Below the pieces are notes generated by a model. The model saw only the letters and a program-made list of their open reading frames with translations, did not search any database and had not been told where the DNA came from. Of a stretch of 64,000 nucleotides of DNA, positions 46,541 to 64,000 are shown piece after piece (the first letter of the stretch is position 1; every line of letters starts with the position of its first letter). The translations under genes and the position numbers were made by a program. Source of the DNA: Tubulanus polymorphus (taxonomy: Eukaryota > Animalia > Nemertea); contig NC_134027.1 of NCBI RefSeq assembly GCF_964204645.1, positions 9,704,485 to 9,768,484 on the forward strand, read 5' to 3'.

Positions 46541-47146
46541 GTAATTTCGAATTTGCCATCGATTTAGTAACGTTCACAAAGAGCCAGGGCCAGTGAATGT
46601 CCGTAGAAAGTGATTGATTGTCTGCTGGATTTCTGAATAAATGTGTCGTAAAAAAGCAGGAAATCGTTGACGTTTTGCTTGGCCTTGTTCGTTGTGTGGA
46701 AGAAAGGTCAACAGGACGTTGTGGTCTCAGTCAGTTTTTTGTAGGTTGTACAAATCTGATATATGTCTTAAAAGGACGAGAATGGATAACAGTCGAACTA
46801 AAACGCGGATCACGAATTCCTTGCATACTGTCCTGTATTGATTGAAGGATTTATGCATTTTTGGTTCAAGTCACAACAAGAACTGTGTAGAACAACAAGC
46901 GAAGCAGATCAAAATGCCAAAAGCTTAGGCATCCAAGTGCAATATTGCAGTGTGGTCATTCACAGATCCTATTTTACATATTGTGTGGTGTATATTTATC
47001 AAAATATGCCTCATTTTTATTAAGGCACACAACCTGTACGGAAAGGACCCACCAAAAGATTATTCAAAAATGCAGTTGTTAGGGCTGAAAACCCATTAAC
47101 ATTGCTCCTCCATACCGCGGCTTTATTATTTTGATCAATATTTCAG

Positions 47147-47319
47147 ATGATGAACCATCACCCTCATCAACCGGCTGCGTTTATCCAATACGTGTTGCCA
47201 CACCCACAGTTTGTAATGCAGCCACCACTCGACCCTGCGGCATACACGGCCTTGGTCACTACTGCGGCGAACAGCGTCGCTGTTCCACCACCTGAGTTCA
47301 TACAGAAAGAAAGAGACAG
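47147..47319 (+). CDS. RBM5/10: RBM5/10 coding exon 1 (MMNHHPHQP...KERDR)
   Basis: tttcag|ATG and CAG|gtatgc; phase 2 fits the next exon; no recognisable homology. Confidence 0.65.
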
Positions 47320-50300
47320 GTATGCATTACCTCTTAAAACTTATTCTCACAGGTTGCTGCCATGAATACCCGGTAGTTCCTAGTGAAAAGAATTCAATAA
47401 ATGGGGTAGCTTTGAGCTCAGAGACATCAGTGCGTGTACACACTGGAGTCCTTGATTTCGGCCTACAAGCTTTTGTTCTGCTCAGTCCATTTACTGTAAT
47501 ATTTAAGTTTTAATTCATTAGGGATGATGCTTTCCCATTTACAGTAATACAGTGGAACCTCGCTATATTATAAGGAGGTTAAATTCCGAGGTCTTTATGA
47601 TAATGACCTTGGAATTTAACAATTTATCTGTTATTACAAACGTAGATTTTCACACCGGATACATTATTGTCTGTCACACCTGCTCTTCGTGCGACGTTTT
47701 GATCCGTTATTTCGTCAATAAACTGTTGATTTACCTTTATTATGCATCAATTTGTTCAGTAAGGAATTTGCATTCAGAATTAAACAACAATTTTCCCTAA
47801 AGTTGTTTTTGTTTTCATTTATGAGCGATAGTTTACTCAGCATACGATCACGTAATGCTTAAAAATCCGCTACGCAGACACTCGGAAACGTTACAGTGAC
47901 GTCATCATCTGCTCATTAGCATAACAAAATACAGTAGGTGGCGCCACGTGACGGGCCGGAAAAGCCGTTTTTCGGCATTACGCGAGCGTATGCTAGGTAA
48001 ACAATCGCTGATAAATGAAAACAAACAAATTTATGCCAATTCATAATTTATTTCTGAATGCAAATTCCTTACTGAACAAATTGATGCATAATATTCGCAG
48101 ATCAACTGACTATTAACAAAATTACGGACCAAAACGTCGCACGGAGAGCAGGTGTGACAGACAGATAGGCTACTTTCAATAATTTCAAACTGGATAGGCC
48201 TATAACAAATTATTGGTTAGGACGAACATATTTTCTAGTGCTCTGAAGTTCCAAAAGTTCCACTGTACTCAACAAAATGTTGGGGATGCTTTCCCAGTGA
48301 TTTAAAAACATGACGTAATGATATTTTCAGGGATTTAAGGAGAGAAGCCGCCGTTGCTCACATTGATCTGTTGCATGAACGTCGACAAGATGTAGATTAC
48401 AGAATCTTGGAAGAGGTAATGAATGCGTTTCAGTTAGTTTTGAGATAGCCGCCATTTTTAGAATAGATTTTCTGGCGTCAGAATCCTGTTGTGATGTCAC
48501 GTTCTCAATTATCCCTTTAAGTGCCGACAAAGAGATAATTTTAAAGATTTTTTTGAAATATTCCACTTTGTGTGTTGAATAGCGGGCATACTGCTATAGT
48601 GTGTCTACACCGTGGTGCGGTGTATTGTTGCATATTTCTCTATGTACAACAGGCGCTGCCATCTTTCAAAAGAGATAAAAACTAATGTCTAATAACATCA
48701 ATACATCGCGAGCCCATCACTGATATATATGCCGCATTGCGGTGAAGACGCAATGAAAGGGTTAAGTGTGATATTTCGCTTGAATTCATTGTAATCATTT
48801 CAGATTCATTTCCAGTTAATTTTCTATTAAGCTTGTATTTCTTGTAATGACTGAATAGTCGGTTCAGATTTTTTTAACGTGGTTAATTTCAGAATCGCCA
48901 TATCATCGACGACGGTTTACGTGAACAAGACCGAGGTGGTGGGGACAAATGGATGACTGACACGCCGACGAACACGATTCTCCTGCGCGGCTTACCCCAG
49001 GAAATCGACGAAAAAGATGTACGTTCTGAGTTCAGACGATGAACCTAAAACAACAGTTTGATATAATATTGGGGGGAATGCGCATTTGTTTCTGTTCAAA
49101 GGCTTGAATTTTAAAATTAAAAGAAAAAAAACTTCTTTTTTTGGTCATCCTAATTTTAAGTATTTATTACAGATAAGAGCTGAATTGATGTTATTTGGTG
49201 CTCCCGTCAAGGATGTTCGTTTGATGAAAAATAAATCAACAGGTAAGACACTTCGGTTCTGACGTCGTCGTTGACGATGACGTCAGTTCTCTTCTGAGTT
49301 TACTTTGGTTTAAACAACCCGGGGTCGACCTCACTGGAAGCTGGAAGCGTAACGGCAGGGTTTTAGCCTAACTATAGACGTGAAAAATCTTACGTATGAG
49401 ACGGGTGGGGAACACTATTTTTTTGGACATTCGTTGAAATCATTGGAAATAAATTTACGAGCTTCATCTAATATGCAGAGCTTTGAAACAGTTATTGACT
49501 CCAGAGAAATAATGTGTCTTCATTATCTTCATCCAATTTTGAGGACTTCCCTCAAACATGTTTGGATGTGGCACAAAGATTATTTTCCATGAATGAAAAT
49601 TGCATTTAGGATGTATGATGTAACAAAGGTAAAAATAAAAAGAATAATTATTGCAACCCTTGGATGCGTTGTGAGAATGGTAGGTATGGTATTGGTAAAA
49701 CCGGCATGCAGCTGCAGACAAATGAATGCCGCGGTAAGTATGAACAAGGCATGATAGGGTTGCAAAGGATGGTATGAACTTGTGTACATTTAGGTGTGTT
49801 GATATTCTACAAATAAGTCACAAATTATGATATATAGTTAAACCATGGCTGCGCTATGATACCTTCAAATTCTGATGTTGACAAGAAGATGTTAACATAC
49901 AGTTCATCTCGACCATTGATCTCAAGTTAGACAAGGCTTTACTGTGGTTACTGGTTACTGGTGCTACTAACTCTAGAAATGGGGCTTTTAAAGCTCTGAA
50001 GATTCATTTGAATTTTACCTGGTTTAACTATATACGTATTTTGTGACTTAAATTTAGGTAACCATATATTTTGGCGTTTTATTTACCGGAATACAATGCG
50101 ACTGCCTGTAGGTTTCACAATTATGGATGTTGAAGGTTACGCTTCCAGTGTCGGATCGGGCTTCCAGTGAGCGTCGCGGTGACCGTACGCGCACGAGTGA
50201 GAGGGCAAAAAAAATGACGGCAACAACCCAAACAACCGAAAGCGTTTTGCGGGTGTTAAAATTGTGTACGATATTTACCAGTGAACTAACTGAGCATTGT

Positions 50301-53300
50301 TAATGTCATGTCCAACAGGTGCGTCCCGGGGCTTTGCTTTTGTGGAGTTTCAGAACATTGACGACGCTCAGCGATGGATCGCAAAGAATCAGGTTTATCT
50401 CATTTATACACTACTTCTACTACACTCGACGGTACAGTAAATTCAGTGATCAGTCACGTGGAACGAACAGTCCACGTCAGGGGGGTCGGTTTTTAAAAGT
50501 GCGCTGGGAGCGAGCATTTCGCCGCCCGCTGCTACACCGCTATTAGTACCCGAAATTGCAGGGGAGCGGGGCTGTCGAATTTGTATGTATCGACAACGTT
50601 GTAGAAATAAAGAAAAAAATAAATAATCCGGGATATAAATACAGCGTGATTTCTAAGGAGGTAACAAGAACTGGATTTGAGGTTCCTGTTAAAGAGAGCC
50701 AGTGCTCTCTTGTCCTCCCTTGCAAACTTTTTACATTGGCTTTTATAACACAACGTACAATGTAACTCGGTGCACGCATTGTTTAACTGGAAGGCTCCTG
50801 ATGAAGGAAGGGAAAACATTGTTCGCCGTTAGATTCTGTAGTACGGGGCATGCTTATTACAATTATTATCAAATTCCAGTCTCATGTTTCTTTCCATATG
50901 TCCCTTGTTTTCGTGTTGAGCCGATTTCTCTAAAAAAATTTTTTTTTACGCAGCATGATTATTTTGCATATATTCAAATACTACGTCTTTTATATCACTG
51001 TTATTTCTACTACTTGGCAATAACCTCATCATCAGACATTCATAATACATCGGCTGCGTTTTCTTCGAGCACACGCTGTGGACGTTTTGCGCTTTTTTTT
51101 TTTTAAACGCACAAAACCTTTCGTCGACGAATTCAATCTAGCCGCTAATTAACGTACATGATCGTCGTTTTAAAGGAAATCATTCGACGCCTCCTGATTT
51201 GTTGATTATAGTCAGTCGTAACTGTAAACCATCCTCCTTCAGTTTCGGATTTGAACCTGATGGCTAGACTCGGCGACGGCTCGAAACCCTGCTACACTAG
51301 ATCATGTGCGCAGGTTTGTCAAAAGAAAATTTGCGGCACCAATCATGTCGCCCATTACAAAATCGCTAGGCAAGTTTCGTGGATAAACTTACTATAAATT
51401 GAAAAATTCGGGCTAGAATAAAATGGGATATCTGATTGGTTAATCATGATATCATCTAATCTTCACACTTGTACTAGTCAGTAAGGGTGGTGAGTCTCGA
51501 TGCTATCAGGTTTGAATTTCAGCCATGGGAAGACGCTGTGCACATTAAAAAATAGTGTTCATTAAAAGTGAGCCAATCGTATAGATATTTAAACTGGCCA
51601 TAGGATGATTAAGATTGCTCTTAGAACAGCCATCCTTGGCAGTCGCGTAAGGCAACCAATCTGGCGATAAGGGTGGTCTTCAGGTTCAGGAGGCCTCGAT
51701 ATGATCAATTCCTCCATTCGGCTTCGATTATGATATTTAAACCAGTAATTATTCGAAATAACGCAACGATTACCTCCGCGTGATCCCATCATGAAATATT
51801 GGCATAACTAAGAAAGAAACATTTCAGTATGGGGTGGTTCGCTATCAAATCGACGAAAAAGCGGGGGTGGGGTTCATATTTGAATATCACAGCTCTAATC
51901 AAGAAACAACAAATGAATGAGTGCTTGCTATACCAACCATTCTCTCCGAACATTCATCTATTTTTTACCGCAAACATTCTTCAAAACTGGTTGTCGGAGC
52001 TCCGTTTTCGCTGCATTTAGTAGATTTTGATATACATATATATATATATATAGTTAGAGAACCAATAATTGCGTACTAGTTTGGTGTGTAAATGCAAACT
52101 GTTCACATATATAATATCGTAATATATCTATCGCTATTTTCTTCACCGACCGAGTTTCTCCGATTTGAAAAGTCATTCGAATTAACTCTCGGCTCGGAGA
52201 AAGTCGGAGAAACTCGGGAAATTTTGTGATCATCATCGTCATTTCGAGAGTTCCATTGTTTGTGTGTGTGTGTTTGGCAGGGTCGTAACCCCCGGTCGGA
52301 GCGAGAATTTGACTGTGGCATTGGTCTGATTTCAGGGCATGTTGCGGTTGCTTAACCAATACCAAGTGACGATGTACTACAGTTCGCCGAGAGGCAACGA
52401 CCATAACAGTAAGAATTCCGCGTATAACAAGTCGGATTGGACGTGCACGAAGGTAAGAAAATCAAAATCCCCTCTGCTTCGTCGCGCATAGTTTTTCTTC
52501 GAAGTCACCATCAGGTCGTTGAGTCTTTACACGTGAATGCGCCTAAAAGTTGATTTTCTAATGGGATGATTACCGGTGTCTTTACGCGACGCAATCCACT
52601 TCGATCGACTTTTATTTAAAAAACTGATTCCCAGTCCCATCGAAGACAACGGTTTCCTTATGTAAAAAATCTCCATGGTCCAGTTCCACCGTTCCGAGTT
52701 AAGATTTAACTCTAAGTTAACTCATTGAAAATGAACTAACTTAAACTCTTCTAACTCACAACCGTGGAACTGGGGCCATACTACTCATTTATTGATCACC
52801 TTTAGCAATTACGCATCTGATGAAGTATGGTGCATTTCAATGGAGATTTTTTACCACGCGCGGTGCCGCCCCATTTTTTCCTAGAAAATATGAAAAAATC
52901 TCAAGCTTTCATTTCTGTAACGAGTGACTGATATTCCGATGAGAGTTGCGGAAACTCATTGGTCGTGTATTTGTTGGGTTATTTCGTTGCTGATTTGCCT
53001 GTATAACTGATTTCAGTGTGGGGTACAAAACTTCAAACGCCGTGACCACTGTTTCAAGTGTAATCTATCGAGGGAAGGTAGGTCGTCGTATTGTATTGAA
53101 TGAATCGAAGCTACTAGAGAGTTCTTTTTTTCCGGCCAAAAAACTCCGGTACGAGGTGAAAACACATTCGCCGAAATGGATCTCCGCGGAAATACGTACG
53201 AGCAACTTCGAATACGTATGAATGTAACTAAAGTCTAGTTATTTTTGTCTGGGATTGATTTTTTGCTTAATACTTTGAAAATGTACAGTACTCTGTACCT

Positions 53301-56300
53301 CTAAATGGTCTTAATACAACCAGTGAAACTGTGCAGTCGAGAAAAACTATCATTTTTATATCCTTTTACACTGTATCGAAGGTGTTTCCATTTTCTCGTT
53401 AAAAAGAGAAAAGATCAGCGTTTTGGCAATCCTTCAATAGAGAGCAAAACGGATATAAAAATGATTATTCAGACTGCACAGATTCGCTGGTCGTAATAAG
53501 ACCAAATTGTGGTATTCATTCATAATGTTAGGCAAAATATCCTCAAAAAATCTGTCCTAGATGAAAATAGATGGACTTTAGTGGAATGATATTATATTGA
53601 GAGACGTTGTCGAGCGAATGAATGAGTGTGTGCATCTTTCTGGAAGTCTGCATCTCGTCCAGTTTGTCATCATACTTCTACGCATGTAAAAGGTTGCTCA
53701 AAACTCATGAGCGGTATTCATCGTCAAACAACCGAAATCACACAATTTCATATTGTTGTTTTCTTTCATTTTGCAGCTTCGGAACGCATTCCAGACAGCG
53801 ATGGTTTTGACCAGGTCGGACAAAACCCGTGCAATAGTATGTATTCTATTCGTCGACGTAGTTCTCGTGGGCATGTGCATACCCTGAAGGCGTTCAAAGG
53901 TCTGGGGGTGGTGGGCCTAGGCTGTCGATGATGCCTGAAACAAACTGACTCTCTTCTATTTGAGAGTAGTTTGTACTCTTTTTTACAAGCTGAACATCTC
54001 CCAAATATATCAAAATTCTCTAAAAATCAGAATAATATCTCAAGGCATTCAAACTTCTAAGGGTAGTGGGCCTAGGCTGCAGAAGATACCTGTAATAAAC
54101 CTGACTACTATTTGAGAGTTCATGTAGTTTCTTCTCATTTTATGAGCTGAACTTCTCCCACAATAACTATTAATTTTGATATCAAAATCATTCTCATTTA
54201 TGGTGAAAACTACTACAATTAGGATATCAGAATGTCTGGTCTTGTGTAAAATGAATTTCTCGGCTTTATTAGGATTGAGTGTAAATCATGTCGCCATCGT
54301 TTCAGCGTTGATTCTTCGCGGTTTGGATGCCCTGACGACCGAGGACAACATCTGCACGGCGTTGGCGAAATACACGCACAACTCGCCGAAAAATCTGACC
54401 ATCGTGAAAGACTCGGCGAGCGTATCGAAGGGTTTCGCGTTCATGGAATTGACGTCAATTCAAGAGGCGTCGCAGCTGATGGAACTGTGGAGTTCGAGTT
54501 TGAACCCGCTTGAAGTCGACGGAAAAGCCGTGATGGTGAACTACGCGAAAAACACTTATAAAACATCGTTAGTATTTGATGGTTCTGTTATTTCGCTGTT
54601 ATTCATTGGGGCCCTCTTGATTTTTAAAAACTCCTTGAAAATGGAAAATGCTTGAAACTCTGTTGATTTTGAGAAATAGGCAATTAGAAATGTTTGTCTA
54701 GTTTGAAGTTGTACACAAGACTACCCCTAGATTGGTACAGTTGTGGGACCATAATTTTTTTTCCCTAATTAGGCGGTTACCAAATTAGAAACCGAGTTGT
54801 ATCGGATAGAAATTTGCTTACAAAACCATCAAATTAACAGTTTATTGAGATTAACTATATTGATTTAGGAGGAGTACAGTAATTTGGATATGAAATTTAT
54901 GCAGACACTCATCGAAATTTGAAATTTTCTCCTTTAAAACTCTCTATATCTAGGAATGACTGATCTGTAGTGACTCTGTTTATACAGTTTATGTAGTTCT
55001 TACAAAAAGTCCTATAACAGCCTAATATTTTGATGTTTGATTTTTTTAGGATGGCCCAAATGGCAGCTACTAATGAACAGGTAAGAAGAAATTCGCCAAT
55101 TTTTGTATCCCTGCTACTTAGATTAGGCTAAGATATGTTTGTAACGTGAACTCAAACGATAATTTTTCTTCAAAATCTCTCAAATTCAACAATAACGTTG
55201 TTGATGTTATTTTGTGTTTATAGCGTTGGGATTACAACAGTCCTGAATATCAACAATATTATGATCAACACCAGCAGCAGTTCTATGATCCGAACAGTCA
55301 GGCTTATTATGACTACTATTACGGACAGGGTTATTACCAGCAGCAGGACACGAAAGCATCGACGCAAGGTATGTCTTATGTATTATGAGTTTAGTTGAAT
55401 ATCAATTTTTGCAGCCTGAAGTAAAGGCTAATTACAGACCATTGATGTTTCACAATAGATTTGCATATATATGATTAGACATAATTTACATATAAAGAGA
55501 GTAACTAGTCCCATTTGTTTTGAAAACAGCAAATTGAAATCAATCCTCTCCATATGCTGGATTTTAAAGGGGTTGCATTATGAAATCTCAGCTGCTGGAG
55601 TAGCAAGGCTTTCGATCCCCCCAAAAAATACAGAAGATTTAAGCTAGATTCAGTATAATCTTCTAGCTTTCACATTAGTTCAATATATTTAGAAAAAAAG
55701 CAAATAATAATATCAGCATTGATAGAATATTTGCATCCACTCGGGTAGTGGGAGAAGATATTTATAACGGGTGGATATAAAGATGAAATGAATGACTGCC
55801 CCTCAATCCTGTTGTGGATACTACTGGAAATACCAGCTAGTCGGGTCTGCATATATTTATGTCGGTGATTATTTGATTTTCAGCGGATATCACTAACGCA
55901 GCAGCCGCGGTTGCGCAGGCAGCAATACGACAAGCACAAGCGACGAAACAATATAAAGCGCAGGAAGAATTGAACAAGCAACAGATCATGGACAACAATA
56001 AAACAGATACCGATAAAAAACCGGCAGCAGCAGCAGCGACGACGGTTTCATCGGCCACGGCGACGACCGCCACAAATAAGAACCTACCAGCGGCGGCATC
56101 AACGGCTACTACGGACTCGAAAAAATCTGATTATCCTAAATATCGTAAGTTGTCGCAATGTTGAAGAAGCATCTACTTGATAGGGTTCCGCAGATTAAGA
56201 AACTTAGATTGTAATTAGGTCCCTATGTCGGAGAAATTATTATAATTTCTCAAACATTGGTTCTCATTGTCAGGGACAAATCTGCCCGATATTGGTTTCC

Positions 56301-59087
56301 TCAAGTTCACTTCAATATCACCTCGCGCATCAATTTCATTCTACATCCCTATCTTTGATGTTGAGCCGATATTTTGATGAATACCGGTATGTTCATTTCT
56401 TTAATTTGGTTCATCCTGCACAGCACCACCTGATGTCTCAAAGTATCAGTACGACGAATCGACGGGATATTATTACGATCACTCAACCGGGCTTTACTAC
56501 GACGCCAACTCGCAATATTACTACAACGGTGAAACCGGGCTGTTTATGTACTGGGACGTGGATCATTCGACCTATTTGCCCGCGCCGGACTCGGTCAACG
56601 AATCTCTCACGCAGAATAGCAGGAAAAAAGAGGGCAAGAAGGACAAAGTGAAAATAGCCAAGAAAATCGCTAAGGTTCGTTTTCAAACCCACTTGGGAAG
56701 CAGCGGGCTATTCCATTCACTTTTCCTATGTTCTTTCGTTCATCTATCGGTGGACAAGACAATATCTTGTTATATTGGGAGTCTTCAATCGATTTTCTTG
56801 ATATTTGGTTAATATATCTACCCAGACGCATCTTCGGTCCAAGGCTGACTAGTGGCCATTGTTGTTCCCTGAAATCAGCTCTTCATGCATTTATGAAATT
56901 TTACGGTCATTTTGGTTCTAAATACATTCACCAGGGGTGTTGAATAGCGCAATAACATGGCATTTCGGTATAATGGTAACAATATAGGCACCTTTGCCTA
57001 ATTTGCAACGACAATCCGTAGCAAAATTGTACACCTTTAACTGAAAATAAGAGAATGCATTATTGTGCTAGTAAAGGCTGACACCTCTTGGTGGTCACGT
57101 TAGATAAAACACTATATCCGTGTTGAAGCGATGTAGAGAGAATCCCACAATAATAACGAAAATATATACAATCCAGAGACAAAGAGACTAATTCAAGTAA
57201 TTAATGGGATTCTCTCTACACCTCTAGGGGGATTTGCAGTAGTAGAACTCTCCAAATATTGACTTTACTGAACCTTCTTTAAACGATTTCAGGATATGGA
57301 AAAATGGGCAAAAACAATGAACAAGAAGGAGCAGCGTCGAGATCCAGCTAGAAAATTATCATTGGTGCCGGACATGTCGTCTAGTCGGACTGCAGACGCA
57401 GGTTTCGCTGTTCTTGAGAAAAAGGTTCGAAAAACCCATTCATTTTGAATTTAACATTTACCTACGCATAGAAAAAATATGACGATAAATGAAATACATA
57501 TAAAGCCAAAACTATAATGAAAGTGTAATACTCTCACCTAGGACCTCGTCTCGATGAGGGTGGTCTTATTGACTGTATAAGCAGAGTTATTTGATGTATC
57601 ATTTCAGTACGCAACTCCAGAGGCAAGCAATGACCATCCACTGATGCCGCCACCGCCTACGGTAAGCTAATTGAAATCTGATAAAAGAAAATGTCCTATT
57701 CTTTGAAAAAGAATACTTGTAAATGTATTTTGCTGAAATTGCATTCTTCGTTAACAGCCGAGCGGTGCGAAGGATTCGAAGACCGGTTTAGTCGCTCAGT
57801 ACGGAGGTGACAGCGACGACAGCGGCGAAGAGGATAACGAGGACGTGAACGACGAGAAGTTCGCCGATTATAAGAAGATGGCGTGTCTGTTGTGTAAACG
57901 ACAGTTCCCCGATCGAGAAATACTAGTCAAACATATGCAGTTCTCGTCGTTACATCGCGAAAACATGGATGCGTACAAAGCGAAAATGGGAACGGTTTCT
58001 GGTCAGAAAAAAGAACAGGTACTTGCTATTCATTATACGAATGTGATAACAGATGAAAGAAGGCAGATATGGGCAAACCCTTATATGTCTGGCAATGGTC
58101 TTACTTAAAAGCTTAGACGTACAGATTCCGCCTGAAATGTTTTTCAATTCGCAAATTTCCCTGTTTGTAGAATTACCGAGACCGTGCGAAAGAGAGAAGG
58201 GAGAAGTATGGCACTGATGGCCCGCCGCCTCCGAAACGTCGCGCTGGACCGATAAAACCCGCAAATATTTCGTGAGTTGATTTTACCTGAATAGGTTTTG
58301 ACTTCATCAAGAAAAGAATTGATGGAACACCGATCTCTTGAAACGATTGAACAAAAATTGTCTTTTCTGCGTCTGGAATTCTGAAGAAAAAGCTATTTTC
58401 TTTTTACCCTTATGGCTTGCTTCATGCAATGTTTTCGTGACGTTTTGTAGATATGAGCAGCCAAACAATAAAGGTATTCAGGAGTCGAACATCGGAAACA
58501 AATTACTGCAAAAAATGGGCTGGAATCAAGGCGAAGGATTGGGCAAGAAGAAACAAGGCATAACCGATCCTATTCAGGTAATAGTTGGTTTTGTGTGCCA
58601 GTAAACACCGTGGAAATTACCTGTCACAGCATTATATTAACTAATTGACAAAATCACCATATGATGAATTATCTGTCCACTTGATTCAAAAGACTCTTTA
58701 ATTTCATAGCCATCCTAGTGTCACATTAGGTGTGGATTAGGCTTACTTGATATAATCACTGGGTAATAGGATTGTTATCAGCAAGATACTTGATGCTTAT
58801 ATTCATTAGCCATTTCAAAGCTTTCCTAATATATATTGGGCTTACCTAATATAAGAAAATTGTTATATGCGCAAGAAGCTTAAGACCCTTATAGATGCTT
58901 ATATTGTTATTAGAATATCTCAGCACTGAAGTAAACTAAAATATCATTGATGTTTTAGGCAAAGAGTCGACAGAAAGGAGCGGGACTAGGCTCTCGTGGA
59001 AGTAACTACGACATCGGACCTACCGAGTCATATAAGGAGGCTGTTAAGAAAACAATGTACCTGCGATTCCAAGAAATGCACGAATGA
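47147..59087 (+). CDS. RBM5/10: RNA-binding protein RBM5/RBM10 family, 19 coding exons, 839 aa (whole gene span)
   Basis: Manual splice assembly with GT-AG boundaries and consistent phases: 47147-47319, 48331-48415, 48893-49018, 49173-49242, 50319-50392, 52336-52452, 53017-53077, 53777-53836, 54306-54567, 55050-55080, 55224-55368, 55884-56144, 56424-56674, 57293-57424, 57608-57661, 57758-58018, 58171-58271, 58451-58577, 58959-59087 (2520 nt). Domain order RRM, RanBP2 ZnF, RRM, OCRE, C2H2, G-patch is diagnostic. Confidence 0.93.
47550..48265. mobile_element. TA-flanked CAGTGGAAC-TIR MITE (Tc1/mariner-pogo type) interrupted by a foldback element
   Basis: TA|CAGTGGAACCT at 47550 and AAGTTCCACTG|TA ending at 48265. 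Confidence 0.65.
47668..48163. mobile_element. About 500-bp foldback element with roughly 190-bp inverted arms
   Basis: tgtctgtcacacctgctct..gtgcgacgtttt pairs with aaaacgtcgcac..agagcaggtgtgacagaca. A long perfect block ttatgcatcaatttgttcagtaaggaatttgcattcagaa recurs as its reverse complement at about 48052-48091. Confidence 0.9.
48331..48415 (+). CDS. RBM5/10: RBM5/10 coding exon 2 (DLRREAAV...RILEE)
   Basis: ttttcag| ... GAG|gtaatg; open in the required phase. Confidence 0.7.
48513..48761. mobile_element. Possible TTAA-type (piggyBac-like) MITE
   Basis: ttat|CCCTTTaagtgc ... gcaatgAAAGGG|ttaa; left target site is degenerate. Confidence 0.45.
48893..49018 (+). CDS. RBM5/10: RBM5/10 coding exon 3, start of RRM1 (TNTILLRGLP)
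   Basis: RNP2-like ILLRGL; canonical splice sites. Confidence 0.9.
49173..49242 (+). CDS. RBM5/10: RBM5/10 coding exon 4, 70 nt (IRAELMLFGAPVKDVRLMKNKST)
   Basis: DVRLMK motif shared with RBM5/10; ttacag| ... CAG|gtaaga. Confidence 0.92.
50319..50392 (+). CDS. RBM5/10: RBM5/10 coding exon 5, 74 nt, RNP1 of RRM1 (GASRGFAFVEFQNIDDAQRWIAKNQ)
   Basis: RGFAFVEF RNP1; ACTAAC branch point at about 50285; equivalent to exon 6 of mammalian RBM5/RBM10. Confidence 0.95.
52336..52452 (+). CDS. RBM5/10: RBM5/10 coding exon 6 (end of RRM1, DWTCTK)
   Basis: tttcag| ... AAG|gtaaga; W-x-C start of the RanBP2 finger. Confidence 0.92.
52677..52777. mobile_element. About 100-bp MITE family B, copy 1 (PIF/Harbinger-like TIR)
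   Basis: TIR ggtccagttccac / gtggaactggggcc; body similar to 60943-61052. Confidence 0.8.
53017..53077 (+). CDS. RBM5/10: RBM5/10 coding exon 7, RanBP2 ZnF (CGVQNFKRRDHCFKC)
   Basis: C-x3-NF-x5-CFKC motif; canonical splice sites. Confidence 0.95.
53777..53836 (+). CDS. RBM5/10: RBM5/10 coding exon 8 (SERIPDSDGFDQVGQNPCN)
   Basis: ttgcag| ... A|gtatgt, phase 1-1. Confidence 0.88.
53887..54158. repeat. Diverged tandem duplication, about 155-bp period, intronic
   Basis: gtgggcctaggctg, ctatttgagagt and gctgaac.tctccca each occur twice at about 155-nt spacing. Confidence 0.8.
54306..54567 (+). CDS. RBM5/10: RBM5/10 coding exon 9, RRM2 (LILRGLD...SKGFAFMEL...LEVDGK)
   Basis: RNP2 and RNP1 motifs inside ORF 54176..54655. 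Confidence 0.95.
55050..55080 (+). CDS. RBM5/10: RBM5/10 coding exon 10, 31-nt microexon (MAQMAATNEQ)
   Basis: tttttttag| ... CAG|gtaaga; needed to restore frame between the phase-2 and phase-0 neighbours. Confidence 0.85.
55224..55368 (+). CDS. RBM5/10: RBM5/10 coding exon 11, Tyr/Gln-rich
   Basis: RWDYNSPEYQQYYDQHQQQFYDPNSQAYYDYYYGQGYYQQQ; canonical splice sites. Confidence 0.88.
55884..56144 (+). CDS. RBM5/10: RBM5/10 coding exon 12, Ala/Thr-rich (NAAAAVAQAAI...DYPKY)
   Basis: AAAVAQAAI motif; C|gtaagt donor. Confidence 0.9.
56424..56674 (+). CDS. RBM5/10: RBM5/10 coding exon 13, OCRE domain and KDKVKIAKKIAK
   Basis: PDVSKYQYDESTGYYYDHSTGLYYDANSQYYYN is the OCRE octamer repeat. Confidence 0.96.
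57132..57220. repeat. 16-bp perfect inverted repeat (MITE remnant or hairpin)
   Basis: tgtagagagaatccca (57132-57147) and tgggattctctctaca (57205-57220). Confidence 0.85.
57293..57424 (+). CDS. RBM5/10: RBM5/10 coding exon 14 (DMEKWAKTMNKK...TADAGFAVLEKK)
   Basis: DME.WAK and ADAGFA motifs conserved in RBM5/10. Confidence 0.95.
57608..57661 (+). CDS. RBM5/10: RBM5/10 coding exon 15, 54 nt, symmetric (YATPEASNDHPLMPPPPT)
   Basis: tttcag| ... ACG|gtaagc; frame-neutral. Confidence 0.8.
57758..58018 (+). CDS. RBM5/10: RBM5/10 coding exon 16 (GLVAQYGGDSD; C2H2 finger ACLLCKRQF...HMQFSSLH)
   Basis: Family-diagnostic motifs. Confidence 0.96.
58171..58271 (+). CDS. RBM5/10: RBM5/10 coding exon 17 (YRDRAKERREKYG)
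   Basis: YRDRA.ERR.KYG motif. Confidence 0.95.
58451..58577 (+). CDS. RBM5/10: RBM5/10 coding exon 18, G-patch (NIGNKLLQKMGWNQGEGLGKKKQGITDPI)
   Basis: G-patch consensus. Confidence 0.96.
58959..59087 (+). CDS. RBM5/10: RBM5/10 last coding exon (GAGLGSRG...YKEAVKKTMYLRFQEMHE*)
   Basis: GAGLG motif and conserved C-terminal helix; TGA at 59085-59087. Confidence 0.95.
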   Translation, partial: AKSRQKGAGLGSRGSNYDIGPTESYKEAVKKTMYLRFQEMHE

Positions 59088-59511
59088 ACATTAATCTCGA
59101 ATCTTGTTTCGTATCGTCATTATTTGATCGGACTTGTTTGTCGATTGTGTTAGTCATAAGTTTAACAAGAATCCAGTACGTTTATCGAATGCTGGTACCC
59201 AAAGTTGCAGACCCGATTGATCATTGGTAAAATTGTTGGAAAGTACCGTATAGTAGACTGTCTTCACTGCCTTGCTTAGGTAGAGATGGGACTGTGTGAA
59301 CGAGGTTTAGTTTGCCCATAGATCGTGCGCAACAAAAGGATAGATATGTTCGAGGAGTAACCTCTAGACAACTTTAAAATGATATGTACATAATGTAAGC
59401 ATGAAACGTGAGAGTGGATCTCAGACTTTTTAAAAGTTTGTCGATTAATGTAATATTCCAGTTGACTCCTGTGTAAGATGTATTTATATGAAATATATAT
59501 ATGATTGTGTA

Positions 59512-59517
59512 AATAAA
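59512..59517 (+). terminator. RBM5/10 polyadenylation signal AATAAA
   Basis: About 425 nt after the stop, preceded by TGTA motifs and followed by a GT-rich stretch. Confidence 0.7.
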
Positions 59518-60465
59518 ATTTTATTTAAAAACGATGCAATCGTTCGGTTTGTCATTATTTCAGTTCAGATTGCTTTGTCTCTTTAGCCCACTTGGGGAAG
59601 TCGTTATGTAATTTGGGAAGTTTTGAAGAGGCTTCCATTGATTGTCTCGAATGGTAAATACATGCATCTACCCTAGACTCACCAGCCCAGTTTTCATGGG
59701 AAGATGTAGTATGGAGGATCGATTTTGGGTCAAGGTCAATGGTGCAAGGTTCATAGAAGGTCCTTTTAAGTTTGAAATGGGAATGGTTCAATTCAAGGCC
59801 TCGAGTATCATGGAATGGTCTCCAAAGTCCTGGTCCTCGAATGGCATCAGTCATTAGTTATCATCTGCAGATCCAAGATAAAAGTTCACTGTTGCAGCTC
59901 TTAAAATCTGAAGAATGCCTGGAAAATGTAAATTCAGGACGAAAGGCATAACTATCATATCCAAGTTCTGGCATCTTGAGCCAAAAAAATCCTTCGAAAT
60001 GATAAAATAAGATTACATTCTATGAACCCCGATAATGGTAACCTTTATGAGTTAAAAGACGAGTCCTGCTTTGATGTTAAAAGAAATTCCTCTGGGAAAG
60101 GACAGGGTATAACTGAAAATTGGATTGGCAAAATTTTTGATGGTTGTATCAAAGTAGTGCGTAGAATACTAAACAATTAACTGATTTTAGTAATAATAAT
60201 ATAATCATTTATTTTACCATAATCTATTACCAGTAGAAAGTTATGTATCACCTTATTTGTTCACCAATTGAATTAAGTATGTATGAGTATCATACATTAT
60301 GAAACCATTAAAAAAGCCACCATTTTTAATGTATAATCTGGCTAGGAAGGACCATTATACCAACAATAAGTGAGTTCCATACAGATTAGCGATATAAAAA
60401 TTTTTCAAGTTGGTTGAAATAGCTGCTTGTGGAAACAACCAATGGATACCAAACGTTTAGAAATA

Positions 60466-60639
60466 CAGTAAAAGTCCTTTATAATGCCACTGTTGGGACC
60501 TTGGCATTATAACGAATTTGGCGTCATAAGGTAGGTATTTCAATCGAATTTGAGTTAAATTGAGCAAAAGTTTGTTCTCCAAAAGATTTTGGCCTTAAGG
60601 GAACATTAAAAAGGATGGCGTTATAACCGACTTTGACTG
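60466..60639. mobile_element. TA-flanked CAGT-TIR MITE
   Basis: TA|CAGTAAAAGTCctttataatgcca ... tggcgttataaccGACTTTGACTG|TA. Confidence 0.75.
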
Positions 60640-60942
60640 TACGTGAAGATTTCATCCCTCAGAGAGCTTACGCATAAACCATTTGATAACATCATGAATA
60701 TATTTTAGTTTCACAGAATAATTAATTGTTGTTTAAAATATGGATATACGTTCAAGTTCAGATATGTTTTCAATTAGTAAAATCCAATCAAATGCGATAT
60801 TACTACGATAACTTTTGACAGCGCCACAAACAATGCACAGTAAGTGGAAAGGAAATCAATATCAAAAACACAAAAAAAAACAAATAAGAAATGACCTATT
60901 GACCAACAGAGGATTGTTCATGTTCGCAGTTTTAAAGACCAG

Positions 60943-61052
60943 GTGCCCAATTCCACAGTTCTGAGTTAAATTTGACTCTGGAGTAAAAACATTGGAAATG
61001 AACTGACTTTAACTCAGAGTTAACTCTAACTCACAACTGTGGAACCGGGCCC
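60943..61052. mobile_element. About 110-bp MITE family B, copy 2, in the SLC35A2 3' UTR region
   Basis: gtgcccaattccacagtt ... aactgtggaaccgggccc, flanked by CAG/TAG. Confidence 0.8.
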
Positions 61053-61132
61053 TAGGGAACACTTTAATGTAAATCTTCTCATGAATATAGAAATATAACA
61101 ACTCTTTTAACAATACATCGTTACCACAGCAG

Positions 61133-61807
61133 CTACGATTTCGACATTCCATTCATAATTGACGACAGTTTTTGCGGCTTCGAGACAGTCGCGAAACGAC
61201 TGTACATATAGACGGACGACATGACGAGCGACGCGCCGATAACGAACTGTAAACTAATGATAAAATCGAAGAAATACATCGACGCTATACACGAGATAAC
61301 GATCGCGGCAGATGTCGCGAATCCTTTCAGGATGTTGTCCGCGTACTTGACGACGACGGCAACCATCAATCCGCCGAACGACTGTAAAAAGATCACGCAC
61401 CACACGAGATAGTTATAACCAAAAAAGAATCCCTTGTCGTGCACCGCGGCGCCGTCGTTCAGTTCCATCGTGACGAGGCCGAAAATCACGCCTAGAAATC
61501 CGAGCTGCACGTTACGCAGCCACAGCGATTGCACCGTACCTTTCAGGATCTTCTCGAAATAAACGCCCGCGAATCCTGACATGACGCACGACGCCAAAAC
61601 GGCGACGAGGCCCAACAGCGGGCTTTGTTTGACGGATTCTTCGGCGGACGTTTGGCTCGTCGGTTTCGCGATCGTCGGCTGCAATTGTACGATCGAAATA
61701 CCGACGAACAAGATCATCAACGCAAACCACTGCATCTTCGTTAGACTCTTACGCAGCATCACAACGGAAAATATCGCGGTCGTCAACAGCTTCAACTGAT
61801 AAGTTAC
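61133..61807 (-). CDS. SLC35A2: UDP-galactose/UDP-sugar transporter SLC35A2-like, last coding exon
   Basis: VTYQLKLLTTAIFSV...SGFAGVYFEKILKG...SLWLRNVQL...GGLMVAVVVKYADNILKGFATS; acceptor ttttcag at 61808. Confidence 0.93.
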   Translation of the reverse strand, partial: VTYQLKLLTTAIFSVVMLRKSLTKMQWFALMILFVGISIVQLQPTIAKPTSQTSAEESVKQSPLLGLVAVLASCVMSGFAGVYFEKILKGTVQSLWLRNVQLGFLGVIFGLVTMELNDGAAVHDKGFFFGYNYLVWCVIFLQSFGGLMVAVVVKYADNILKGFATSAAIVISCIASMYFFDFIISLQFVIGASLVMSSVYMYSRFATVSKPQKLSSIMNGMSKS

Positions 61808-62112
61808 CTGAAAATGATCGGAAGAACATTAAGCGAAAAAACATTAAGCGCATAGGCAAAATTAAATCAAAAGTATTTATTGAAACATTGGCAAATTGGA
61901 ATGATTTCAAACCTAACGATTTATCGGGATACCTACAACCAGTAACAAACGAACAATTTTCATCCAAATTAGAATCCACACTAGATATCATGAATAACCC
62001 AACTGAATAGGAATTTTAACTTTCGACTATTCCCATCCCTTATGCCAGACATTTAACCAATACATAAAGACAAGGTCCTAGTTATCATACCCAGTATGGT
62101 TGTAGGTACTTT

Positions 62113-62317
62113 CAGGGTTCATAGTGTCCATGACCAATCTCGTTTAATGACGTTCAGGGACTTTTGTTACTCTAAATCTACATTTATCAGGCATTCTTAT
62201 AGGACCATGACAATGATTCAAGGATTTTAGCGCCTGTTCCATGATAATTACGACCTTGAACTGAATGATTCCCATTTCAAAACTTTTAAGGAATTTCAAG
62301 GACTGCTATGAACCCAG
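62113..62317. mobile_element. CAGGG-type MITE in an SLC35A2 intron; related inverted fragment at about 59745-59830
   Basis: TIR cagggttcatag / ctatgaacccag. Internal ccttgaactgaatgattcccatttcaaa matches the reverse complement of tttgaaatgggaatggttcaattcaagg (59771-59798). Confidence 0.65.
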
Positions 62318-62406
62318 TACTTTAATTTCAAGAAGTTTGGTGTCTGAGCTTCGCAAATCATAAGTAGTGTTCAACTATGAACTACGAGTTGAAGGTGACT
62401 GTGTAC

Positions 62407-62741
62407 CTGGAATGTCGCCGCATCTAGATTCGACACGGCTACGTAAAGCAAGTTATTCTGCAGAACGTATACAATGGATGGCACCGATATCTTCAGACAA
62501 TCCCACGGCTGACAGATCGTGTTCTGGTAAAGATGTCGCAGCCACGCGCGCGCGCTGCCTTCCTGGAACAGTATGATCACGAGACACGTCGTGAATTTGA
62601 TCGTTTCTGACATGATGACGGCCGTCGACGATTTGAACATGTCGCCGGTGCGCGTACGCACGTAGCGCATGAGCAGAATGAGAGCAGCATTCTGCAGCGT
62701 CAGCAACACGAGACTCACGTACTTTAACAGTTGAGCGCTAC
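62407..62741 (-). CDS. SLC35A2: SLC35A2-like internal exon, 335 nt (LKYVSLVLLTLQNA...QNNLLYVAVSNLDAATFQ)
   Basis: SLC35A motifs; AATFQ followed by one large final exon favours A2 over A3; canonical splice sites. Confidence 0.92.
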
Positions 62742-63634
62742 CTGAAAAACATCAATCAGAACGGAATTTAGGCGCAAGAAAAATATATGTTAAATACCAA
62801 AATTGTTGAAAAACTTAACAAGTTTATCTAAAATACTGGAAATATTTCGGGTGGTACCTGCCACCAGACCAGTTAACTTTTCTCATTTTGGCCAGGATAC
62901 CTTTTTTTCTCATTTCTGCTGAGCTTAAAAGTTGACCCGGCCGGCCGCCTATATATACCCTGTACATTTTTTTTTTCAATTCGTGCTTAAGTTAATCATA
63001 ACAGAACGGGCAGTTATAGAAATGAACTGATTACAAATCTTATTGCAGTTTACAAAATGATTAGGGAATTTGAGACTTATCATTCATTGGGTAATCATAT
63101 CAATTATAATCCTTAAATCATCAATCATTTCAAAGCATTATAAAGATTATACTGGACTATGGAGATGGCGTTTTGATCCAAAAAAAACTCCATACATCGA
63201 AGGAACTCGGCCTTGATCGCCTTGATTCGAATTAAAAAGGTGAATTTTCTTAAACTTTTAAAGCAGTAATTATGGTTGCCGGTATTCATGTAGAGGTTTT
63301 TTAATGATCTCAAGATTATCATCAGCAACTGTGACTTGAATAACTGGACTGGAATCATCAAATATAATACTAGTATGAGATATTTCATTCTTAGAAGTTG
63401 CCACTTATCCTCATTGCCTCTCTTATCCCAGGAGTAAATGCGCCTAGCAGCTGCTCGGATTTTACTTCTCCCCAGGGAGAGATGACTGATAAATGGTCGG
63501 AGGGGTAGGCTAGGGCTATAATACCACTTCAATGGAAAGCGCTGTTGAACATTTTATCACAATGAAAAGTGTGCTACAGAAATTACATTCACTAAATGAC
63601 TACTATCTTAGCCAAGGAACTATAAATGACTTAC

Positions 63635-63659
63635 CGACTAACATCATGACTCGAGACAT
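63635..63659 (-). CDS. SLC35A2: Probable first coding exon of SLC35A2-like (MSRVMMLV-G)
   Basis: Minus strand AAAAA ATG TCT CGA GTC ATG ATG TTA GTC G|GTAAGT: A-rich start context, consensus donor, and phase 1 matching the next exon. An alternative first exon outside the window cannot be excluded. Confidence 0.55.
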
Positions 63660-64000
63660 TTTTTACAAAAATAAATACACCATTATCTATAATAGGCTGC
63701 TATAGTCCCATGTGTTACATGCAGGAGTGACTGTCATGGTTATGAACGTCAGATTGTCTGTAGGCTGAAACTAATTTGCTCAGCCGTCAAGCGTCAACCA
63801 ACGATTCATTGTAGCAGTTGCCACAGATAATTACATTTTTGATCAAGGAATCAATTCAACCCAGCTGCGTTATATTGGAATGAATCTCGTATGCAACAGT
63901 AACACACGTGAATATCAATCGATATACCAAAAATGGCCTTAATTAAATCATCGACTAGAGTCCATGATTCAATCAAACCTCAAATTAGATTGTCTATACA

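Follow-up and report, generated by a model that had tools for sequence, protein, structure and literature searches.

Intron 5 of the RBM5/RBM10 gene of the nemertean Tubulanus polymorphus is predicted to fold into a stable long-range helix around two strong internal donor sites, it is found whole in RNA-like contigs beside its spliced form, and a predicted helix close to the donor recurs in the same intron of distantly related animals. Our working hypothesis, which we think has slightly the better chance of being right, is that intron 5 is retained and that the helix (helix A) is a fixed clamp around the two donors, which act as decoys that tune retention. The gene lies in a window of 64,000 nucleotides (contig NC_134027.1), by which we mean the whole stretch of DNA analysed.

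A preliminary description of the window had assigned the gene to RBM5/10. This assignment is borne out by a protein, P0001 (source name RNA-binding protein 5-like, T. polymorphus), which matches the RRM2 exon at 99 %, maps exon by exon to 47147-59087 by tblastn, and unites in one protein the RRM, RanBP2 zinc finger, OCRE and G-patch domains that define the RBM5/RBM10 family (PF00076, PF00641, PF17780 and PF01585). Spliced joints are present both at the proposed donor (49243) and at the proposed 74-nt exon. From their sizes, we take the 70-nt and 74-nt exons to be the counterparts of human exons 5 and 6; the helix-bearing intron corresponds to human RBM5/RBM10 intron 5. Retention of intron 5 leads to a stop after 157 codons, the same count as skipping of exon 6. 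Further along the window, coding-looking exons at 61200-62750 (- strand) mark a neighbouring gene, presumably, as judged by eye, for a nucleotide-sugar transporter-like membrane protein. The features of the intron 5 region are as follows.

49173..49242, + strand: coding exon, 70 nt, RRM1 (tblastn of P0001, spliced joints)
49243..50318, + strand: intron 5 of 1076 nt, kept in RNA-like contigs (spliced joints; X2 contig 49215-50342)
49259..49286, + strand: 12-bp hairpin just behind the donor, pair probability 0.98
49326..49353, + strand: 5' arm of helix A, CGAC plus 24 nt, holding a tandem CTGGAAG duplication
49495..49504, + strand: candidate cryptic acceptor TTGACTCCAG (prediction), like a motif in five arthropod-type introns
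49677..49687, + strand: internal donor ATG/GTAGGT, GT at 49680, U1 pairing -10.7 kcal/mol, candidate decoy
49731..49741, + strand: internal donor GCG/GTAAGT, GT at 49734, U1 pairing -11.2 kcal/mol, candidate decoy
49814..49845, + strand: 5' arm of helix B, nested, AU-rich, about 30 bp, pair probability 0.97-0.99
50020..50050, + strand: 3' arm of helix B
50136..50176, + strand: 3' arm of helix A (inner part 50136-50149, 12-nt bulge, outer part 50162-50171, GTCG 50173-50176)
50286..50318, + strand: branch motif CTAAC at 50286-50290 (branch A predicted at 50289), weak pyrimidine tract and exon-6 acceptor
50319..50392, + strand: exon 6, 74 nt, frame-shifting, with RNP1 motif (tblastn, spliced joints)
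50393..52335, + strand: intron 6 of 1943 nt, which RNA-like contigs likewise keep; no comparable helix

In helix A, 49330-49340 is the reverse complement of 50161-50171 and 49341-49353 that of 50136-50148, giving 24 Watson-Crick pairs with one 12-nt bulge and arms about 780 bases apart, exactly as first described. Folding of the intron predicts these two segments with pair probabilities of 0.97 and 0.91 for the intron alone and 0.99 and 0.94 with the flanking exons included, and the adjoining CGAC (49326-49329) and GTCG (50173-50176) pair with a probability of 0.85. The outermost extension proposed earlier, 49309-49321 with 50250-50260 (TTTAAACAACCCG/CGGGTGTTAAA), does not survive: its probability is 0.00 at all 7 pairs tested, and the outer TTTAAAC/GTTAAA pairing was rejected on this prediction. 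End-to-end pairing at the intron termini in isolated folds is likely to be an end effect. Helix B and the hairpin behind the donor had both been overlooked. The best two-stem composite in 2000 dinucleotide shuffles reached 19 bp, whereas helix A scores 24 and helix B 26, and among 126 real tiles of the window five reached at least 18 bp (two in this intron, two in an inverted repeat of intron 1 and one scoring 18). Donor-proximal pairing in intron 5 had a z score of -9.6 against 30 block shuffles, whereas none of nine other introns of the gene reached -2.5 in the same test. Rfam gave no match within intron 5 in a search of 47000-64000. Five within-species variants all fall outside the helix arms, which chance would give about half the time, and the variant rows listed hold no A-to-G differences in the arms.

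The helix had been seen as a potential structural switch for autoregulation. The equilibrium prediction gives a single dominant fold, with a probability of 0.0 for an alternative register of helix A; because no competing fold is predicted, helix A does not appear to be a two-state switch, and a static clamp is the best reading of the modelled structure. Opening of its 5' arm would cost 23.8 kcal/mol and is predicted to lower the accessibility of the branch point from 0.74 to 0.45. A branch point had been placed at about 50285, and CTAAC lies at 50286-50290. The suggestion that the helix brings the donor near to this site holds for the present species, in which the effective donor-to-branch distance falls from 1076 to about 200 nt, but not for arthropod-type orthologues, in which 270-460 nt are left.

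Both internal donors are comparable in predicted strength to the real donor of intron 5 (U1 pairing -11.0), most closely the one with its GT at 49734. Among the 17 other introns of the gene a strong internal donor occurs in intron 6 only, in scans of donors and of other introns (and, likewise, in the Smith-Waterman comparison below) in which two intron borders were a few bases off. Further candidate acceptors are predicted to end at 49366 and 49609. Those at 49504 and 49609 score poorly, on a scoring in which two training rows were a few bases off. All nine candidate cryptic exons tested bring an early stop. The donor of exon 6 (CAG/GTTTAT) has a U1 pairing of -5.6, which is nothing unusual in this genome, where 5 of the 17 others compared are weaker. 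Near the end of intron 6, 55 nt upstream of the exon-7 acceptor, a well-scoring AG follows a TG repeat at 52281; its use would shift the frame, and it is not seen spliced in the contigs.

Two runs, X2 and X5, have spliced joints at the expected borders and are treated as RNA from these joints alone, no run being recorded as RNA. In X2 the whole of intron 5 is present as one unbranched contig (49215-50342) at a depth of 142, beside a spliced joint at 228, and the whole of intron 6 as one contig at 288, beside a spliced joint at 214. Bin depths in X2 imply no retention of introns 4 and 13, and intron 9 has a depth of 14 against 1173; introns 7 and 8 (52453-53776) are partly present at 172 and 139, so that retention is not confined to introns 5 and 6. 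Intron pieces also occur in a second RNA-like run, and X3 and X4 hold intron pieces without joints. Since levels are poorly reflected by contig depth, the X2 data speak for the presence of retained forms and not for their rates. Two further runs with the same species label, X7 and X8, contain only a diverged spliced contig and no intron; this contig differs at 11 of 66 and 5 of 79 bases and, on that account, probably comes from a sister species or a mislabelled sample.

Orthologous loci were sought among metagenome contigs with an exon 6 pattern and its flanking AG and GT; the same pattern had no match among the genome contigs and viral contigs searched. The 51 loci recovered form 29 groups by exon identity, and 30 of them have a complete intron 5. 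Twenty-one representatives were chosen, of which three, with introns shorter than 320 nt, did not enter the helix test, leaving 18 lineages. By exon peptide L001, L006, L009, L049, L019 and L051 are of lophotrochozoan type, the last two being closest to a Dreissena protein, and the arthropod-type loci have insect proteins as their closest named relatives. From their residues, we take two loci to be of vertebrate type (L012 RBM10-like and L038 RBM5-like). The window intron has no blastn match below E 1.7 in any of the 51 loci, and in whole-intron multiple alignments of the orthologues the 3' arms did not align.

Pairing of the region +21 to +152 with the rest of intron 5 nevertheless reached z of -2.5 or lower against block shuffles in 10 of 18 lineages, and in none of 17 intron 6 controls (Fisher p 0.0003), a test in which the lineages are related rather than independent and the 5' window was set after stems had been seen in the orthologues. 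The other eight lineages gave no signal. Two other statistics are weaker and point in the same direction: a position-free test went beyond z -4 in 4 of 13 introns 5 and 0 of 12 introns 6 (medians -1.9 and -0.8, p 0.02, with eight shuffles each), and a Smith-Waterman statistic was passed by 6 of 18 as against 2 of 28, as well as by 16 of 158 arbitrary tiles of the window. The presence of the architecture in other animals extends what had been described from the nemertean alone. In the fish-type L038 the arms lie at +112 and -154, and in arthropod-type orthologues 270-460 nt separate the 3' arm from the acceptor. Unlike L038, L012 has neither a donor-proximal helix nor an internal donor in intron 5.

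When arms were exchanged in a 15 by 15 matrix that included the window, the own partner came out on top of its column in 9 of 15 cases. The 5' arms of L009 and L006, aligned by eye on shared flanks, differ at six positions, and give -24.2 and -24.4 with their own partners but -7.1 and -6.8 when swapped; in this model neither arm pairs with the partner of the other, which amounts to compensatory change between relatives. The arms of L009 and L001 are 93 % and 86 % identical, compared with 66 % for the rest of the intron; in two other pairs (L005 with L022, and L016 with L047) conservation of the arms does not exceed that of the remaining intron. The window and the bivalve-like L051 have in common an arm, CCTCACTG(G/A)AA (a 10/11 match to a paired arm of L051), in which one G-C pair is replaced by A-U and whose partners lie at -160 and -154; as we estimate about 0.4 such matches by chance in the 52 kb scanned, this similarity is suggestive only. 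We propose that the fold has been kept by selection while the arm sequence has been replaced lineage by lineage, the nemertean arms having been compared with those of distant animals only.

Strong internal donors are present in 16 of 21 orthologous introns 5, as against 7 of 20 introns 6 (p 0.012) and 5 of 21 reverse strands (p 0.002), and their count modestly exceeds that in block shuffles (19, compared with a mean of 11.6 and a maximum of 22). In the 14 helix-bearing introns listed, the window included, 16 of 17 strong internal donors lie inside the span of the helix; the product of the enclosed fractions over eight loci is 0.007 if kinship is ignored. Five arthropod-type introns (L023, L028, L030, L033 and L047) have a common cryptic acceptor motif at +86 to +154, upstream of the internal donor, which would define exons of 19-102 nt. 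For L033 the prediction (p 0.99) has the acceptor tract base-paired to the donor, and for L030 a helix arm is predicted to cover the acceptor. A YTAAC motif lies at -24 to -43 of the exon-6 acceptor in 20 of 28 lineages, together with a weak tract; in 17 other introns from the window gene the motif is absent. Five cDNA-like contigs (L017, L020, L024, L032 and L025) keep introns 5 and 6 and then run uninterrupted for 610-718 codons, one of them ending with AATAAA and a short A run, unlike six DNA-type contigs, in which further introns are present. On the strength of the long unbroken coding run we read these five as retained-intron transcripts, intron-poor genes being an alternative, although in L011 exon 5 is joined to exon 6 and intron 6 is kept; the search pattern itself favours contigs that keep the flanks of introns 5 and 6.

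Could the helix be a neutral remnant, left by decayed foldback or MITE ends or by local duplications and without function? The genome is rich in hairpin elements, with repeat bins at 340-1900-fold read depth. A long MITE-like inverted repeat with a 42-bp perfect stem lies in intron 1 (47661-48163) and contrasts with helix A. A short hairpin repeat has two copies, at 52677-52772 (about 1900-fold depth) and at 60938-61058 (weak miRNA-like Rfam matches, far under the gathering score). Both arms of helix A also contain short tandem duplications, GCTTCCAGTG being present twice in the 3' arm. However, in the DNA reads of run X6 the region 49203-50406 has a depth of 8-10, the single-copy level, so that the intron is not a multicopy transposon, and the 5' arm occurs once in the window with up to three mismatches allowed; the many genomic copies expected of a MITE or foldback element were thus not found, as the preliminary description had anticipated. 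This depth rules out a repeated element that fills the intron; a 24-nt end common to elements with unrelated interiors would be compatible with it and with searches confined to the window. The 12-nt bulge that splits the 3' arm and the helices in the same intron of distant animals further count against a remnant, which we consider improbable; the window helix is probably functional. We give marginally less credence still to a constitutive splicing aid that merely shortens the intron and hides cryptic sites. The shortened donor-to-branch distance would fit such a role, and conserved complementary regions are reported generally to obstruct cryptic sites (PMC8052449), but longer or similar introns of the same gene lack such helices, intron 5 is poorly rather than well spliced in X2, 270-460 nt remain before the acceptor in arthropod-type orthologues, and the strong internal donors have been kept rather than lost.

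Alternatively, the helix could set the inclusion of a cryptic exon (for example 49505-49679 or 49505-49733), with NMD to follow, as in BRD2 and BRD3, whose poison exons are under helix control (PMC10789245, PMC11062102). A looped-out decoy or poison exon had been part of the original suggestion, and the loop does enclose cryptic splice signals. The early stops in all the candidate exons are in keeping with this explanation, as is the TTG(C/A)CTT..CAG acceptor motif of the five arthropod-type introns, which, although derived from these same loci, does not occur in intron 6 or on the reverse strand in the 30 loci scanned; moreover, NMD would hide the transcripts. Against it, intron 5 forms one unbranched contig in X2, a poison-exon joint is absent from X3, X4, X5 and X8 and from the 15 joints listed (contigs drop rare forms), the window acceptors score poorly and no alternative fold is predicted. 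We therefore regard poison-exon control as rather unlikely here, and favour retention tuned by clamped decoy donors.

Under the latter hypothesis, helix A would form in vivo and U1 would bind the looped donors; the helix would likely keep these donors unspliced, making them decoys that set how often intron 5 stays. RBM5/10 protein may then act on U2 where a strong branch point precedes the weak acceptor of exon 6, so that intron 5 stalls, and a stalled intron 5 would close a negative feedback loop through which the gene limits its own output. Autoregulation of this gene is suggested by analogy with human work. Human RBM5 has +5+6, +6 and delta-6 forms (PMC2174484), RBM10 drives exon-6 skipping and NMD in both paralogues (PMC5737846) and binds RBM5 introns 5 and 6 (PMC5737846, PMC10445532), and RBM5/10 act, and repress, within branch-site U2, which they are proposed to stall or dismantle via DHX15 (bioRxiv 2023.09.21.558883, PMC13041897). 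The nemertean gene shares with this human system its family, the 74-nt exon, the flanking introns and the retained pair, whereas the accessible text of the human studies mentions neither RNA structure nor an internal donor (PMC5737846, PMC2174484). Exon-6 skipping, described in human, is not among the nemertean contig joints listed, contigs being prone to lose rare forms.

The arrangement, with its candidate exons, resembles BRD2 exon 3b and BRD3 exon 5b, where a long-range duplex within introns encloses a cryptic exon with a stop and sets unproductive splicing, and where different sequences arrive at the same design (PMC10789245). In the BRD paralogues non-homologous introns are used and the exon is spliced in (PMC10789245), whereas in RBM5/10 the design is maintained in a single homologous intron of different phyla, and what is seen is retention. 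SF3B1 intron 4 is likewise a retained intron of more than 1 kb in a splicing-factor gene, with cryptic splice sites rarely or never seen spliced (Parra 2018, PMC6097662), and decoy sites are known to promote retention (PMC6097662). At 1076 nt, with a whole-intron contig beside spliced joints, the window intron is also a large retained intron; its donors are candidate decoys, and the accessible account of SF3B1 intron 4 mentions no enclosing long-range helix. Like human PCCRs, helix A is stable (24+4 bp, p 0.85-0.99), long-range and intronic, lies near splice sites, avoids the branch point and encloses cryptic sites (Kalmykova 2021, PMC8052449), and looped-out exons are reported to be less included and complementary regions to obstruct cryptic sites (PMC8052449). 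PCCRs are defined by vertebrate sequence conservation, whereas the window arms could not be aligned with any part of the 51 distant loci; the RBM5 PCCRs listed in the accessible data (at least four) enclose a 61-nt exon and not intron 5 (PMC8052449). The element would work like known helix-controlled unproductive splicing, and is not a PCCR conserved in sequence across the species compared, a demonstrated poison exon or a switch. In the literature searched, which included few subscription papers, we found no paper on RNA structure in RBM5/10 intron 5 and none on invertebrate RBM5/10 autoregulation. What is new, as judged from the sequences compared, is that a helix, a donor inside it and retention of introns 5 and 6 recur in distant animals while the sequence is rewritten.

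It is interesting to speculate, as a possibility to which we give somewhat less than even weight, that intron 5 holds a module as old as the bilaterians (a helix around a decoy donor, together with a consensus branch point and a weak acceptor) in which the architecture has been kept and the arms rewritten, and which underlies RBM5+5+6 transcripts, those of human included. Both RBM5 and RBM10 regulate splicing and are tumour suppressors; forms of them with retained introns are known, with no cis-mechanism given in the accessible literature. A helix-plus-decoy module found from nemertean to arthropod- and fish-type genes would offer specific elements to mutate or to block with antisense oligonucleotides, and may represent a class of regulatory RNA structure that is missed by catalogues resting on sequence conservation.
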